Both the position numbers and the translations under genes were made by a program. Below the pieces are notes generated by a model. The model saw nothing but the letters and a program-made list of their open reading frames with translations. It made no database searches and was not told the origin of the DNA. Shown piece after piece: positions 57,091 to 64,000 of a stretch of DNA of 64,000 bases. Source of the DNA: a phage; sequence record PZ452582.1; one strand, written 5' to 3'. Within the stretch, counting starts at the first letter, position 1. The number at the start of each line of letters is the position of its first letter.

Positions 57091-57438
57091 ATGAATTTTA
57101 ATTATTACCCTATTCTATTAGAAAAAGATGAGAAACAGCCAAAGTGGCAGGGTCCTCAGTTTATTAAAGGTGTCTATCAATTAGTAGTTCCTAAAGACAA
57201 GATTTATAGCAGTTGTTTCACTGAATCCGCTTGTAGTATTTTCGGTAATAGTTCTCCGTATTGGAATTTTGACATAAAGCTGGATAGAAATATCGATATT
57301 TGGTTGAAAGCTATGGATATTGGTAATATTACGTTTGATGAGAATAATTATCATATTATTGGTCGCTTTTCCAAACGCGGTAAAGAATTATATTTCACAC
57401 CTGAAATTGAGAGAAAATTTGATGCTAAACCGTATTGA
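57091..57438 (+). CDS. Hypothetical protein inserted between frd and td
   Basis: 115-aa ORF; in T4, frd and td are recalled as directly adjacent. Confidence 0.5.
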   Translation: MNFNYYPILLEKDEKQPKWQGPQFIKGVYQLVVPKDKIYSSCFTESACSIFGNSSPYWNFDIKLDRNIDIWLKAMDIGNITFDENNYHIIGRFSKRGKELYFTPEIERKFDAKPY

Positions 57439-57483: not shown

Positions 57484-58344
57484 ATGAAACAATACCAAGA
57501 TTTAATTAAAGACATTTTTGAAAATGGCTATGAAACCGATGACCGAACGGGCACAGGAACAATTGCTTTGTTCGGTACTAAATTGCGTTGGGATTTAACC
57601 AAAGGTTTTCCTGCAGTAACAACTAAAAAGCTCGCCTGGAACGCATGCATTGCTGAGCTAATATGGTTTTTATCAGGAAGCACAAATGTCAATGATTTGC
57701 GATTAATTCAACATGATTCATTAATTCAAGGCAAAACAGTCTGGGATGAAAATTACGAAAATCAAGCAAAAGATTTAGGATACCATAGCGGTGAACTTGG
57801 TCCAATTTATGGAAAACAGTGGCGTGATTTTGGCGGTGTAGACCAAATTATAGAAGTTATTGATCGTATTAAAAAACTGCCAAATGATAGGCGTCAAATT
57901 GTTTCTGCATGGAATCCAGCTGAACTTAAATATATGGCATTACCGCCTTGTCATATGTTCTATCAATTTAATGTTCGTAATGGATACCTTGACCTTCAGT
58001 GGTATCAACGATCAGTAGATGTTTTCCTCGGTCTTCCATTTAATATTGCATCATATGCTACGTTAGTTCATATTGTAGCTAAGATGTGTAATCTTATTCC
58101 GGGAGATTTGATATTTTCTGGCGGTAATACTCATATCTATATGAATCACGTAGAACAATGTAAAGAAATTTTGCGTCGTGAACCTATGGATTTATGCGAA
58201 TTACAATTAAAATTTCCAGATGAATTTGATGAATGGGACACAGAATCGCAGGTATTTTGGTTGAGTCAATTCGCAAAGCCGCATAATTTTATTCTTAACA
58301 ACTATGAATCACACCCTCCTATTAAAGGAAAGATGGCGGTGTAA
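57484..58344 (+). CDS. td: Thymidylate synthase (Td), intron-less
   Basis: 286 aa in one continuous ORF; sequence recognised; T4 td carries a group I intron that is absent here. Confidence 0.93.
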
Positions 58345-58628: not shown

Positions 58629-58908
58629 ATACAAATCCGACTTTGATGTTAATATTCACCGTGGTACATTTTGGGGAAATTACGTCGGTAAAGATGCTGG
58701 CAGCCGGGAGGCTGCCATTGAATTATTCAAAAAAGATTTTATACGTCGAATTAAATCCGGAGAAATAACTAAAGCACATTTAGAGCCTTTACGTGGAATG
58801 AGGCTAGGATGCACATGTAAACCAAAGCCGTGTCATGGTGATATAATAGCTCATATAGTTAACCGATTGTTTAAAGACGATTTTCAAGTTGAGGACTTAT
58901 GCAATTAA
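58582..58908 (+). CDS. DUF4326-like protein (conserved CxC...PCHGD motif)
   Basis: 108-aa ORF with GTFWGN and [15 protein letters not shown] motifs; start uncertain because it overlaps the previous ORF. Confidence 0.45.
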
Positions 58909-61163
58909 TTAATGTTATCAAAAGTAGTGGTGTTTCTCAGAGCTTTGACCCACAAAAAATTATTAAAGTTTTATCTTGGGCAGCTGAGGGAACATCAGTA
59001 GATCCTTATGAATTATATGAAAATATTAAATCTTATCTCCGTGATGGAATGACAACTGATGATATTCAGACTATTGTCATTAAGGCTGCTGCGAATTCTA
59101 TTTCGGTTGAAGAGCCTGATTATCAATATGTAGCTGCACGCTGTTTAATGTTTGCTCTTCGTAAGCATGTTTACGGGCAGTATGAACCGCGTTCATTTAT
59201 TGACCATATTTCTTATTGCGTAAATGAAGGGAAATATGACCCTGAATTATTGTCAAAATATTCTGCGGAAGAAATTACATTTTTAGAATCAAAAATTAAG
59301 CACGAGCGGGATATGGAATTTACTTATTCCGGAGCGATGCAATTAAAAGAAAAATATCTAGTCAAAGATAAAACCACCGGTCAAATTTATGAAACTCCAC
59401 AGTTTGCATTTATGACTATTGGAATGGCATTGCATCAAGATGAACCTGTTGATAGATTAAAACACGTTATTCGTTTTTATGAAGCAGTATCTACTCGACA
59501 GATTTCACTACCAACTCCTATTATGGCTGGTTGCCGTACTCCAACTCGGCAGTTTAGTTCATGCGTTGTTATTGAAGCAGGTGATTCATTAAAGTCTATC
59601 AATAAGGCTTCCGCTTCAATTGTTGAATATATCTCTAAACGCGCTGGAATTGGTATTAACGTTGGTATGATTCGTGCTGAAGGTTCTAAGATTGGCATGG
59701 GTGAAGTACGCCATACTGGTGTTATTCCTTTTTGGAAACATTTTCAGACTGCTGTTAAATCATGCTCACAGGGTGGAATTCGTGGCGGCGCTGCTACTGC
59801 TTATTATCCTATTTGGCATTTGGAAGTTGAAAATCTTCTTGTTTTGAAAAATAACAAAGGCGTAGAAGAAAACCGCATTCGTCATATGGATTATGGTGTT
59901 CAACTGAATGATTTGATGATGGAACGTTTTGGAAAGAACGATTACATTACTTTGTTCAGTCCCCATGAAATGGGCGGAGAGCTTTATTATTCTTATTTTA
60001 AAGACCAAGACCGTTTCCGTGAATTATACGAAGCAGCAGAAAAAGACCCTAATATTCGTAAAAAGCGTATTAAAGCCCGTGAACTATTTGAATTGCTCAT
60101 GACTGAACGCTCAGGAACAGCAAGAATTTATGTACAGTTCATTGATAATACGAATAACTATACTCCGTTTATTCGTGAAAAGGCACCTATTCGTCAGAGT
60201 AACTTGTGCTGTGAAATTGCTATTCCAACAAATGATGTGAATAGTCCTGATGCTGAAATTGGATTGTGTACTCTCTCTGCATTCGTACTGGATAATTTTG
60301 ACTGGCAAGACCAAGATAAAATTAATGAATTGGCAGAAGTCCAAGTTCGTGCTCTTGATAATCTTTTGGATTACCAAGGATATCCAGTTCCTGAAGCAGA
60401 AAAAGCTAAAAAGCGTCGTAACCTCGGTGTAGGTGTTACTAACTATGCAGCTTGGCTGGCAAGTAACTTTGCTTCTTATGAAGATGCTAACGATTTAACA
60501 CATGAACTATTTGAGAGATTACAATATGGACTCATTAAAGCATCCATTAAGCTCGCCAAAGAAAAAGGACCTTGCGAATATTATTCAGACACTCGTTGGT
60601 CTCGAGGCGAATTACCTATCGACTGGTACAATAAAAAGATTGACCAAATCGCAGCTCCAAAATACGTTTGTGACTGGTCGTCGCTGCGGGAAGACCTTAA
60701 GCTCTTTGGCATCCGTAATAGCACACTATCAGCACTTATGCCATGTGAGTCATCTTCCCAAGTTTCTAACAGTACAAACGGTATCGAGCCTCCACGTGGA
60801 CCAGTCTCTGTTAAAGAATCAAAAGAGGGTTCCTTTAATCAAGTCGTGCCCAATATTGAACATAACATAGACCTATATGATTATACATGGAAATTAGCTA
60901 AGAAAGGTAATAAACCTTATCTTACGCAGGTAGCTATTATGCTGAAATGGGTATGTCAATCAGCTTCAGCGAATACATATTATGACCCGCAGATTTTTCC
61001 AAAAGGAAAGGTTCCAATGTCAATAATGATTGATGACCTTTTGTATTTTTGGTATTTTGGCGGAAAAAATTTCTATTATCATAATACCCGTGATGGTTCT
61101 GGTACTGATGATTATGAAATAGAAACTCCAAAAGCTGAAGATTGCGCAGCGTGTAAATTGTAA
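58899..61163 (+). CDS. nrdA: Aerobic ribonucleotide reductase large subunit NrdA
   Basis: 754 aa, same as T4 NrdA; sequence recognised. Confidence 0.95.
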   Translation: MQLINVIKSSGVSQSFDPQKIIKVLSWAAEGTSVDPYELYENIKSYLRDGMTTDDIQTIVIKAAANSISVEEPDYQYVAARCLMFALRKHVYGQYEPRSFIDHISYCVNEGKYDPELLSKYSAEEITFLESKIKHERDMEFTYSGAMQLKEKYLVKDKTTGQIYETPQFAFMTIGMALHQDEPVDRLKHVIRFYEAVSTRQISLPTPIMAGCRTPTRQFSSCVVIEAGDSLKSINKASASIVEYISKRAGIGINVGMIRAEGSKIGMGEVRHTGVIPFWKHFQTAVKSCSQGGIRGGAATAYYPIWHLEVENLLVLKNNKGVEENRIRHMDYGVQLNDLMMERFGKNDYITLFSPHEMGGELYYSYFKDQDRFRELYEAAEKDPNIRKKRIKARELFELLMTERSGTARIYVQFIDNTNNYTPFIREKAPIRQSNLCCEIAIPTNDVNSPDAEIGLCTLSAFVLDNFDWQDQDKINELAEVQVRALDNLLDYQGYPVPEAEKAKKRRNLGVGVTNYAAWLASNFASYEDANDLTHELFERLQYGLIKASIKLAKEKGPCEYYSDTRWSRGELPIDWYNKKIDQIAAPKYVCDWSSLREDLKLFGIRNSTLSALMPCESSSQVSNSTNGIEPPRGPVSVKESKEGSFNQVVPNIEHNIDLYDYTWKLAKKGNKPYLTQVAIMLKWVCQSASANTYYDPQIFPKGKVPMSIMIDDLLYFWYFGGKNFYYHNTRDGSGTDDYEIETPKAEDCAACKL

Positions 61164-61804
61164 TGAATTATCAAAACGTATATAATAGTTTAATTTCCCG
61201 GGCTCAAACCCGGGAACCTTTATTAGGATATAAAGAGACTCATCATATAATCCCTAGATGTATGGGAGGTTCTGATGATAAAGAAAATTTAGTTGAATTA
61301 ACAGGTAGAGAGCATTTTATAGCTCATTGGCTTTTATGTAAAATATATGACACCCCAGGATTAAAGAAAGCTTTTGGTTTAATGTGCTTGACTGGTAAAA
61401 ATCGCTCATATAAAATTTCTTCTCAACTGTACGAATTAGGTAGACGACGTTTATCTGAAGCTGCTATAGGACGTGAAGTTTCTATAGAAACCAGAGAAAA
61501 GATAAGTAGAGCCCTTAAAGGAAGGAAATTTACCAAAGAGCATTTAGCTCACATGAGAAAACCTAAAACCGAAGAAGCTAAAAAGAATATAGCTGCTGCT
61601 AAAGTCGGCGTGCTTAATCCGATGTATGGTACAATCTCTCCGACAAGAGATGTTCCTCATACTAAAGAAACCCGTGATTTGATTTCTTTGAGAACTAAGC
61701 AAGGTACAGAGTATCCGCCTTGTCCGCATTGTGGCAAGAAAGTTAATAAAGGCAATGCTTTAAGATGGCATTATGATAAATGTAAATTTAAGGATTCTAA
61801 ATGA
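61163..61804 (+). CDS. Free-standing HNH homing endonuclease (MobE-like) between nrdA and nrdB
   Basis: 213 aa; HNH motif HHIIPRCMGG...N...H; three NUMOD-like repeats; TAATG and ATGA overlaps with both neighbours. Confidence 0.75.
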   Translation: MNYQNVYNSLISRAQTREPLLGYKETHHIIPRCMGGSDDKENLVELTGREHFIAHWLLCKIYDTPGLKKAFGLMCLTGKNRSYKISSQLYELGRRRLSEAAIGREVSIETREKISRALKGRKFTKEHLAHMRKPKTEEAKKNIAAAKVGVLNPMYGTISPTRDVPHTKETRDLISLRTKQGTEYPPCPHCGKKVNKGNALRWHYDKCKFKDSK

Positions 61805-62979
61805 GTACAGTTTTTAATACATCCCCTGTTAATATTTTGACTGAGCCGATGTTTTTTGGTTCTGGATTGGGTTTAGCTCGATATGATATTCAACGACATA
61901 GAGTATTTGAAGAACTTATTGAGAAATCTTTATCATTTTTTTGGCGTCCTGAAGAAGTAAACTTGATGATGGATGCTGCGCAATTTAACAAGCTTCCTCA
62001 GTATCAGCAAAATATTTTTACTAACAACTTGAAGTATCAATCACTTTTAGATAGCATTCAGGGTCGCGCGCCATCTGCTGTACTTATGTCATTAATTTCA
62101 GACCCAAGTCTTGATACATGGGTTGCTACATGGACTTTTAGTGAAACTATTCACAGTCGTTCATATACTCATATCATGCGAAATCTTTATACTGATCCAT
62201 CGAAGGTATTTGATGAAATTGTATTAGATGAAGCTATTATGAAACGTGCTGAATCCATTGGACGTTATTATGATGATGTTCTGATTAAAACTCGTTATTG
62301 GGAAAACGCTAAAGCTGATATCGAATACCAAAAAGAAATTAATGCAGACGAAGACGTTATTGAAGATGCTATTGAGCATGAGACATATTGGAAGCGTGAG
62401 CTAATGAAATCTCTTTACCTCTGTTTGCATGTAATCAACGCATTGGAAGCTATTCGTTTTTATGTATCTTTCGCATGTACCTTTAACTTCCATAAGAACA
62501 TGGAAATCATGGAAGGTAATGCCAAGATTATGAAGTTCATTGCACGCGATGAACAGCTTCACCTTAAAGGCACCCAATATATTATTCGTCAACTTCAATC
62601 TGGTACTGATGGCGATCAATGGGTTAAAATTGCTCAAGAGTGTGAACAAGAAGCAGTTGATATTTTCATGGAAGTTAACCGCCAAGAAAAAGATTGGGCA
62701 GTTCATTTATTTAAAGATGGTGATGTTCCTGGATTAAATACAAATAGCATGTGGAGCTTTATTGATTACTTAACTGTATCTCGTATGAAACAGTGCGGTC
62801 TTCCATGCCCAATTACCGATGCTCCGGTTAAACACCCGTATCCTTGGATTCGTGAATATCTTAATTCTGATAATGTTCAATCCGCGCCACAAGAAGTAGA
62901 ACTGTCATCTTATCTTGTAGCACAGATTGATAATGATGTTGATGATAAAGTTATGATGAGTTTTAAAAAATATTTTTAA
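61801..62979 (+). CDS. nrdB: Ribonucleotide reductase small subunit NrdB, intron-less
   Basis: 392 aa in one continuous ORF; di-iron ligands visible. Confidence 0.92.
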   Translation: MSTVFNTSPVNILTEPMFFGSGLGLARYDIQRHRVFEELIEKSLSFFWRPEEVNLMMDAAQFNKLPQYQQNIFTNNLKYQSLLDSIQGRAPSAVLMSLISDPSLDTWVATWTFSETIHSRSYTHIMRNLYTDPSKVFDEIVLDEAIMKRAESIGRYYDDVLIKTRYWENAKADIEYQKEINADEDVIEDAIEHETYWKRELMKSLYLCLHVINALEAIRFYVSFACTFNFHKNMEIMEGNAKIMKFIARDEQLHLKGTQYIIRQLQSGTDGDQWVKIAQECEQEAVDIFMEVNRQEKDWAVHLFKDGDVPGLNTNSMWSFIDYLTVSRMKQCGLPCPITDAPVKHPYPWIREYLNSDNVQSAPQEVELSSYLVAQIDNDVDDKVMMSFKKYF

Positions 62980-62984
62980 GGAGT

Positions 62985-63004
62985 GGGCCGCAAGGCCCAT
63001 TTTA
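62985..63004 (+). other. Hairpin (GGGCC-GCAA-GGCCC) between SD and denA start codon
   Basis: AAGGAG SD at 62978-62983, 5-bp GC stem, then ATTTTATT and ATG at 63007. Confidence 0.5.
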
Positions 63005-63006
63005 TT

Positions 63007-64000
<994 letters not shown>

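Follow-up and report, generated by a model that had tools for sequence, protein, structure and literature searches.

Intact mobE of the T6/LZ7 allelic form, with probable homing activity as in T4, between uninterrupted nrdA and nrdB genes in a phage genome

The stretch of phage DNA analyzed here (sequence record PZ452582.1; 64,000 nucleotides, hereafter the window) carries the genes for the two subunits of ribonucleotide reductase on the + strand, with a third open reading frame between them. The layout of the locus is as follows.

58899..61163, + strand: nrdA (754 aa), encoding the large subunit of aerobic ribonucleotide reductase, a single uninterrupted ORF and the upstream neighbor
61161..61166, + strand: TAATGA, the one-base overlap of the nrdA stop and the mobE start, read from the sequence
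61163..61804, + strand: mobE, T6/LZ7-type allele, free-standing HNH homing endonuclease gene (213 aa)
61801..62979, + strand: nrdB, small subunit (392 aa), uninterrupted; the MobE target gene in phages without mobE

The mobE ORF, with its ATG at 61163 and its stop ending at 61804 on the + strand, fills the gap between nrdA and nrdB; the nrdA stop (TAA, 61161-61163) and the mobE start (ATG, 61163-61165) have one base in common, and the mobE stop overlaps the nrdB start by four bases (ATGA, 61801-61804). The same nrdA gene is annotated at the aligned position in T6, T4 and AdolfPortmann, and the nrdB of the window has the length (1179 nt) of the intronless nrdB of Sf22 and AdolfPortmann. No group I intron or other Rfam family was found at gathering score across the whole 64 kb. 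The sequence-only reading had described both nrd genes as lacking introns, and this is borne out by one uninterrupted ORF for each and the absence of an Rfam intron. An intron- or intein-borne endonuclease was rejected, since the ORF sits between two complete genes and there is no Rfam intron match. A tblastn search of the whole window with MobE found no second mob gene; a GIY-YIG ORF located after nrdB (62983-63417) was considered as a second homing endonuclease and rejected, as it is denA, which encodes endonuclease II and is an ordinary T4 gene.

The identity of the ORF is close to certain: it is mobE itself, a known homing endonuclease gene of T-even phages, intact and in the T6/LZ7 allelic form. 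All 642 of its 642 nucleotides are identical to the GenBank mobE of phage LZ7 (DQ178119.1), and the encoded protein shows 96% amino acid identity to T6 MobE and 75% to T4 MobE, and falls in PHROGs family phrog_655, "homing endonuclease" (4.9e-65). The full-length frame of 213 aa is common to the window, T6, LZ7, AdolfPortmann and HY03, and at least 80% of the mobE sequence is covered in 54 records. A chance ORF was rejected on the basis of the 100% match to the annotated LZ7 gene and the Pfam matches. What had been put forward from the letters alone as a candidate free-standing HNH homing endonuclease was thus correctly identified, and the word "candidate" understates the case, as this is a known mobE allele with 100% nucleotide identity to that of LZ7; the element is already known and is ordinary rather than new. 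The first comparison of mobE across T-even phages was reportedly that of Sandegren et al. 2005. The LZ7 sequence bears the name mobE in its deposited record and was among the mobE genes analyzed by Wilson & Edgell 2009 (PMC2790892).

The presence of mobE together with the absence of an nrdB intron is not unusual and is already on record. AdolfPortmann, a complete record, carries the same mobE allele beside an uninterrupted nrdB of 1179 nt; T6 and LZ7 also carry this mobE type, with an intronless nrdB in the portion that their partial records cover. Moreover, crosses between T4 and T2 also yield progeny that are mobE+ and intron-minus (PMC2790892).

Three regions of the encoded protein could be delimited.

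61232..61327, + strand: region of the HNH catalytic motif, residues 24-55, KETHHIIPRCMGGSDDKENLVELTGREHFIAH (Pfam HNH at residues 24-44)
61469..61705, + strand: NUMOD3 repeat region, approximately residues 103-181, presumed DNA-binding module (Pfam NUMOD3)
61721..61783, + strand: possible zinc finger at the C-terminus, with a CxxC...H...C motif in residues 187-207, CPHCGKKVNKGNALRWHYDKC

Pfam HNH (PF01844) matched residues 24-44 with 23.4 bits (cut-off 21.4) and NUMOD3 (PF07460) matched with 36.6 bits (cut-off 20.4; 4.3e-09), the latter in three stretches at a relaxed E-value. With both domains above their cut-offs and the coordinates as given above, the earlier description of a 213-aa HNH/NUMOD ORF that fills the nrdA-nrdB gap and overlaps both genes is accurate. 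The residues H27, H28, N42, H51 and H55 do not vary among the proteins of the window, T6, T4, AdolfPortmann and RB3, so that the alignment to T4 MobE that had been proposed as a check shows the HNH catalytic residues to be present and invariant. A T4 MobE without residues 33-62 no longer nicks (PMC2790892). The NUMOD3 region is presumed to bind DNA, as judged from its family and from the bipartite model of PMC2790892. The C-terminal Cys/His motif is possibly a zinc finger; it gave sub-threshold matches only, to zf-C2HC_2, zf-C2H2 and DUF7575, and weak matches to zinc fingers in the PDB (E = 2-7). Identity between the window and T4 MobE is unevenly distributed along the protein, with 48/55 identical residues in the HNH N-terminus, 30/75 (40%) in the center (aa 56-130), where the window protein has 19 residues fewer, and 82/83 in residues 131-213.

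A single-sequence AlphaFold2 prediction of the 213-aa protein had a mean pLDDT of 41.7, a model unusable for fold search, and searches of the PDB with phmmer and with a four-sequence profile returned only marginal HNH matches (group II intron maturase, E = 0.05-0.24; Cas8-HNH fusions; McrA). As regards the I-HmuI family, to which an alignment had been suggested, neither search against all PDB chains retrieved an I-HmuI chain at E <= 10. Membership of the HNH (beta-beta-alpha-metal) superfamily is proposed from the sequence profile.

Two putative regulatory features lie within mobE, in addition to its overlap with nrdA.

61195..61226, + strand: terminator-like hairpin in the mobE 5' coding region, TTCCCGGG-CTCAAA-CCCGGGAA, followed by CCTTTATTAG (hairpin 61195-61216 and U-rich tail)
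61611..61635, + strand: MotA-box-like middle-promoter candidate, TGCTTAA-N12-TACAAT, found by pattern match upstream of nrdB, within the 3' part of mobE

The arrangement UAAUGA at the mobE start is the same in T4 (PMC2988022), and translational coupling of mobE to nrdA through this overlap is possible. The hairpin, with an 8-bp stem, a 6-nt loop and a short U tract, is the sole terminator-like site in 60800-62200, and the 61-nt stretch around it (61180-61240) has a minimum free energy of -18.1 kcal/mol (z = -3.1). Its alignment with the T4 hairpin, which has a 9-bp stem and a 4-nt loop, needs no gaps and shows a single double change from A:T to G:C. In T4 this hairpin stops approximately 30-50% of transcripts, and the variant of LZ7 and RB15 has been described as having a shorter stem and a longer loop (PMC2790892); the hairpin of the window has this LZ7/RB15 form of the published weak mobE terminator hairpin. 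The MotA-box-like stretch does not vary among the window, T6 and T4; a middle promoter that serves nrdB is located in the mobE 3' region of T4, and mobE and nrdA are transcribed together from a source upstream of nrdA, which has been shown in T4 only (PMC2790892). A scan for sigma-70 promoters gave 13 matches versus 5.8 expected in this AT-rich stretch, one of them at 61158-61186, and is uninformative for a T4-type phage. Overall, the putative regulatory anatomy of mobE in the window (overlap, hairpin and MotA-box-like site) appears to agree with the published description.

Two further features lie in the 5' part of nrdB, in or near the region where MobE cuts.

61914..61931, + strand: stretch that corresponds by homology to the nick site of MobE mapped in T2 (nrdB nt 114-131), a variant allele that is presumably uncut
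61989..62001, + strand: recombination junction (nrdB nt 189-201), the likely 3' end of the tract co-converted with mobE, from mismatch counts versus LZ7 and Sf22

T4 MobE nicks the nrdB of T2 at nt 122-126 (PMC2790892), which by homology is 61922-61926 of the window. Over nt 114-131, 10 of the 18 positions differ between the window and T2 (114, 115, 117, 119, 120, 123, 126, 127, 128 and 129), with a further difference just beyond this stretch, at nt 132; codon 42 of the window nrdB is AAA, and the allele shared by the window, T6 and LZ7 at nt 114-135 is unlike those of both T2 and T4. Under the polymorphic-immunity model, in which the nrdB of the host phage carries substitutions at the nick site (PMC2790892), these substitutions presumably protect the window nrdB against its own MobE. 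FN and PTE-Eco15 have a nick-site allele nearly identical to that of the window without carrying mobE, so the substitutions are not strictly linked to mobE. Furthermore, since codon 42 of the mobE-less FN is AAA and not AAG, the statement that a single nick-site allele (codon 42 AAG) is common to all mobE-less phages can no longer be upheld for the larger set of genomes now available.

Comparison with LZ7 on one side and with Sf22, whose site is empty, on the other revealed a mosaic nrdB. Between the window and LZ7 there are 0 mismatches in nt 1-200 and 95 in nt 201-732 (Fisher p = 8e-15), and between the window and Sf22 there are 37 in nt 1-189 and 7 in nt 190-1179 (Fisher p = 2e-24). The junction lies 63-79 nt past the published nick site, and the LZ7-identical tract begins at least 180 nt upstream of the nrdA end and reaches approximately nt 200 of nrdB. 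Over 36000-60900 of the window, Sf22 and RB18 gave the closest backbones found, and in both the nrdA-nrdB site is empty; such an empty site, scored as a gap of 52 nt between the two halves of the query, was present in approximately three of every four related records of a spread sample. The window phage thus appears to have acquired its mobE cassette by co-conversion, an LZ7-identical tract having entered an Sf22/RB18-like backbone. A tract of this kind is compatible with homing and does not amount to proof of it; the junction could also stem from ordinary homologous recombination between T-even phages, without a break induced by MobE.

Among known systems, the closest are the mobE genes of LZ7 and T6 (DQ178119.1, AY262134.2), the same gene, which likewise encodes 213 aa, overlaps nrdA and nrdB in the same way and has the LZ7-type variant of the hairpin. 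The mobE of LZ7 does not differ from that of the window at all, whereas the flanking nrdB diverges after nt 200; the window phage is therefore a different mosaic. T4 MobE, which has been characterized experimentally (PMC2790892), shares the position, the UAAUGA overlap, the place of the terminator and the MotA-box-like site, but has 232 aa rather than 213. The T4 record also confirmed what the sequence-only reading had stated of this phage, namely a mobE at this same position and an nrdB split by an intron; this group I intron holds the defunct I-TevIII, while the nrdB of the window has none. An RB3-type "MobE" (KM606994, 243 aa) occupies the same nrdA-nrdB position, with a near-identical HNH module over approximately aa 1-62; the remainder is unrelated, NUMOD1 replacing NUMOD3 and the Cys/His motif, and identity is 45% overall. 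This is a module-swapped allele, whose target is presumably different. I-HmuI and I-HmuII of Bacillus phages are, like MobE, HNH nickases with an extended two-domain layout and homing with flanking co-conversion (PMC2790892), but are encoded inside group I introns whereas the mobE of the window is free-standing. I-TevIII (in the nrdB intron of RB3, and defunct in T4) is an HNH homing endonuclease that also targets nrdB; unlike mobE it is encoded within an intron, at an insertion point further into nrdB, and it is absent from the window.

Taking these observations together, it is quite likely that the ORF is an intact mobE of the T6/LZ7 form with homing activity as in T4. The mechanism derives from experiments with T4 MobE and is inferred here for the T6/LZ7-type allele. 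The gene would have no promoter of its own and would be transcribed from promoters upstream of nrdA, its expression being damped by the weak intrinsic terminator in the 5' coding region and probably also by translational coupling to nrdA via UAAUGA. Upon co-infection with a mobE-less relative, MobE would nick the relative's nrdB on its non-coding strand, near nt 122-126, with the N-terminal HNH module cutting and the part comprising NUMOD3 and the Cys/His C-terminus binding the conserved FFWRPEE-coding sequence. Repair on the mobE-carrying template would then copy mobE with flanking nrdA and nrdB sequence into the recipient. Substitutions around the nick site would protect the nrdB of the host phage, and the middle promoter within mobE's 3' end would keep nrdB expressed, so that loss of the element would be disfavored. 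In crosses of T4 with T2, inheritance of mobE is non-Mendelian and flanking sequence is co-converted, and the nick made by T4 MobE in T2 nrdB requires the HNH motif (PMC2790892). Cutting in vitro has never been shown for purified T4 MobE, and regulation of another nuclease by MobE was a possibility that the authors could not exclude (PMC2790892). No mobility or cleavage experiments on a T6/LZ7-type MobE were found in the literature searched.

With its diverged center, 19 residues shorter than in T4, the T6/LZ7 MobE could have another target or another activity than T4 MobE. An active enzyme with a recognition or cleavage site unlike the one mapped for T4 MobE is unlikely: the divergence is concentrated in aa 56-130, the part that separates the HNH module from the conserved C-terminus, and the nrdB allele of the window, T6 and LZ7 at nt 114-135 is itself distinct, but the presumed DNA-binding part, the C-terminal 83 residues, is identical to T4 at all but one position, and the natural junction is located just 3' of the nick site mapped for T4 MobE, as expected for the same place of cutting. 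The same diverged and shortened center would also fit a decaying, inactive remnant that persists by linkage only, like T4 I-TevIII. Homing endonuclease genes are expected to degenerate after fixation, of which this neighbor in T4 is an example. However, a frame that remains full length in T6, LZ7, AdolfPortmann and HY03, the spread over 54 records, an intact catalytic motif and the empty sites that most relatives still offer make decay very improbable.

It is also conceivable that mobE is kept mainly as a regulatory cassette, with the terminator and the middle promoter setting the NrdA:NrdB transcript ratio and the protein being inactive or a helper of another phage nuclease. That the window, T6 and T4 have kept both the terminator and the MotA-box-like site is in line with this, as is the selection that the embedded nrdB promoter exerts against deletion of mobE; MobE might moreover work via another endonuclease, no in vitro activity having been obtained (PMC2790892). 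Yet the mobE ORF is intact with all HNH residues kept, deletion of the HNH motif in T4 abolished the nick and lowered inheritance (PMC2790892), the co-conversion-like scar beside the nick site argues for recent mobility, and mobE-less phages express nrdB from a spacer of 51 nt, so that the cassette is unnecessary for regulation. This explanation is therefore improbable, a little less so than decay and slightly more so than a shifted site.

The preferred reading, an intact mobE with homing as in T4, brings little that is new, as the T4 literature already covers the gene together with its position, regulation and homing behavior, and the exact sequence is in GenBank as mobE; the putative natural co-conversion scar is the sole addition to existing knowledge of mobE. 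In this respect, the window offers a clean tract of apparently natural co-conversion that ends just past the mapped nick site, like those of laboratory crosses, and the exception represented by FN can be used for testing the proposed self-immunity model. If the specificity of the T6/LZ7-type MobE were unlike that of T4, and if FN and PTE-Eco15 were resistant empty sites, which together seem rather unlikely, the nrdA-nrdB junction would be a natural system of competing alleles (T4, T6/LZ7 and RB3 types) with matching immune targets.

Judged by its sequence, the ORF between nrdA and nrdB is mobE itself, carried by a Tequatrovirus, i.e., a T4-like coliphage. The genes are arranged as follows:

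58899-61163: nrdA, 754-aa ORF, single and uninterrupted (annotation in close relatives)
61163-61804, + strand: mobE, 213-aa ORF, from ATG at 61163 to a stop ending at 61804 (ORF listing)
61801-62979: nrdB, 392-aa ORF, single and uninterrupted (annotation in close relatives)

The flanking genes carry the nrdA and nrdB annotations in every close relative. Positions 61158-61169 read TTG TAA TGA ATT, with one base common to the nrdA stop (TAA, 61161-61163) and the mobE ATG, and the nrdB start is joined to the mobE stop in ATGA (61801-61804). The sequence-only reading had described an ORF that fills the nrdA-nrdB gap and overlaps both neighbors, and had considered both nrd genes to lack introns; these coordinates agree with the former, while the latter is borne out by the two uninterrupted ORFs and by an Rfam search, in which no RNA family, group I introns included, reached the gathering score across the 64 kb.

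Among the neighboring genes, td (thymidylate synthase, 286 aa; 57484-58344) is uninterrupted, whereas T4 td contains the I-TevI intron. A 115-aa ORF between frd and td (57091-57438) was assigned to phrog_1928, of unknown function, and had no Pfam match; the T6 record annotates "td.1" there. A GIY-YIG ORF directly after nrdB (62983-63417), considered as a homing endonuclease, is denA (endonuclease II). The ORF listing starts denA at GTG 62983, but the 136-aa product annotated in relatives suggests that ATG 63007 is the real start.

The HNH motif and NUMOD-like repeats proposed for the 213-aa protein were both recovered with Pfam: HNH (PF01844) scored 23.4 bits (cut-off 21.4) over residues 24-44, with the motif intact, and NUMOD3 (PF07460) scored 36.6 bits (cut-off 20.4), with three stretches at a relaxed E-value. 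NUMOD3 and a CxxC...H...C motif are probably the DNA-binding parts. PHROGs assigned the protein to phrog_655, "homing endonuclease" (4.9e-65). Among 823 phage records matching 60600-62400, the best was Escherichia phage AdolfPortmann (98.1%). The ORF is identical to LZ7 mobE (DQ178119.1) at 642/642 bases, and the protein shares 99%, 96% and 75% aa identity with the AdolfPortmann protein, T6 MobE and T4 MobE, respectively, which upholds the proposed free-standing HNH homing endonuclease gene at the T4 mobE position. Membership in the MobE family holds in every respect that sequence can test. By analogy, MobE would work in the manner of I-HmuI and I-HmuII, homing endonucleases of the HNH type that nick DNA; no sequence similarity to any I-HmuI chain in PDB was detectable, and a single-sequence structure model (pLDDT 41.7) was unusable for fold comparison.

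The likeness to T4 MobE is modular:

Identity of the window MobE to T4 MobE
Residues 1-55 (HNH part): 48/55
Residues 56-130: 30/75, with 19 extra residues in T4
Residues 131-213: 82/83

The RB3 gene annotated as mobE (KM606994, 901-1632 of the fetched stretch) has only the HNH module (approximately aa 1-62) in common, and RB3 MobE carries a NUMOD1 C-terminus in place of NUMOD3 and the Cys/His motif. Three or more alleles with swapped modules are therefore found at the nrdA-nrdB site. When the end of nrdA and the start of nrdB were matched to a spread sample of records, 45 rows were full-length; approximately 35 of these had 52 nt between the query halves (empty site, without mobE), while 3 had 638 nt (T6/LZ7 type), 1 had 695 nt (T4 type) and 5 had approximately 730 nt (RB3 type). 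Empty-site phages have a 51-nt spacer in place of mobE, and 54 records cover the T6/LZ7-type sequence at ≥80%. In the window (61145-61160), as in T6 and T4, the last nrdA codons encode ...CAACKL, against ...CSSCKL in empty-site phages; AdolfPortmann has both CSSCKL and mobE, which shows that the polymorphism does not strictly follow the mobE insertion.

The combination of mobE with an intronless nrdB is already on record. In AdolfPortmann, a mobE allele of this type adjoins an uninterrupted 1179-nt nrdB; in T6, LZ7 and HY03, which carry the T6/LZ7 allele, nrdB is uninterrupted as far as the records or fetched stretches reach. Progeny with mobE but no intron also arise in laboratory crosses (PMC2790892). 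The initial interpretation is thus supported, for an element that was already known.

T4 mobE has been shown to be promoterless and co-transcribed with nrdA, with a hairpin shortly past the AUG that terminates 30-50% of transcripts and a middle promoter for nrdB in its 3' part (Wilson & Edgell 2009, PMC2790892); that data set included LZ7 (DQ178119.1), and the LZ7 and RB15 hairpin has a shorter stem and longer loop. The sole terminator-like site in 60800-62200 is TTCCCGGG-CTCAAA-CCCGGGAA followed by CCTTTATTAG (61195-61226), and the surrounding 61 nt fold at -18.1 kcal/mol (z = -3.1). Its alignment with the T4 hairpin TTCCCGAGC-TCAG-GCTCGGGAA is gapless, with G:C for one A:T pair through changes on both sides. 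A pattern match also identified a MotA-box-like candidate, TGCTTAA-N12-TACAAT (61611-61635), which the window shares unchanged with T6 and T4. The regulatory elements are thus conserved at the sequence level, and by T4 analogy expression of T6/LZ7-type mobE would depend on nrdA transcription, with partial termination.

T4 MobE nicks nrdB of mobE-less phages strand-specifically, with biased inheritance and co-conversion of flanks; in T4 x T2 crosses, T4 mobE was over-inherited at a ratio of 2.1 vs 1.5 for an HNH deletion (PMC2790892). Cutting by purified MobE was never demonstrated, and the authors allow for action through another nuclease (PMC2790892). The T6/LZ7 allele probably shares this activity and target; the central third of its protein is strongly diverged from T4 MobE. 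By analogy with the 75%-identical T4 protein, it would place a strand-specific nick in nrdB of a mobE-less phage, and the nick would lead to biased mobE inheritance and co-conversion.

A junction within nrdB may record such an event:

Mismatches of the window to LZ7 and Sf22
LZ7, last 182 nt of nrdA, whole mobE and nrdB nt 1-200: 0
LZ7, nrdB nt 201-732: 95
Sf22, nrdB nt 1-189: 37
Sf22, nrdB nt 190-1179: 7

Fisher tests on the mismatch split gave p = 8e-15 (LZ7) and p = 2e-24 (Sf22). denA is likewise nearly identical to Sf22, and the 25 kb upstream of mobE best match Sf22 (95.7%), whose nrdA-nrdB site is empty; these flanks and the LZ7-identical tract point to an Sf22/RB18-like backbone with an LZ7-type tract. 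Across 36000-60900 (tail fiber genes and topoisomerase through nrdA), identity to any phage-collection record is at most 95.7% (Sf22), and the phage is a mosaic without a near-identical record in that collection. The 3' end of the tract lies at nrdB nt 189-201 (61989-62001), 63-79 nt past the site homologous to the MobE nicks mapped in T2; placing of its 5' end is limited by the LZ7 record, which starts 253 nt before the nrdA end. Although ordinary recombination between T-even phages could also have produced this junction, its position is as predicted by gene conversion initiated by MobE, and in T4 x T2 crosses 3 of 4 mobE+ intron-minus progeny had a crossover in the first 189 nt of T2 nrdB (PMC2790892). 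The junction is therefore taken as support for, rather than proof of, a natural homing scar.

The window nrdB has AAA at codon 42 and differs from T2 at 10 of 18 positions across nt 114-131, directly upstream of a conserved FFWRPEE-coding block. This polymorphic target allele matches the self-immunity model of PMC2790892, and the nick-site substitutions probably protect the host phage genome. According to the same study, every mobE-less phage has AAG at codon 42 (PMC2790892). Comparison of 61891-61960 with positions 743-812 of the fetched vB_EcoM_FN (MZ170041) and PTE-Eco15 (PQ352352) stretches showed that the nick-site allele of these mobE-less phages is nearly the same as that of the window; since codon 42 of vB_EcoM_FN is AAA despite its empty site, the 2009 statement fails with more genomes. 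The "immune" nrdB allele is thus not strictly linked to mobE, and its presence in vB_EcoM_FN and PTE-Eco15 may be a sign that these empty sites are resistant or that mobE was once lost.
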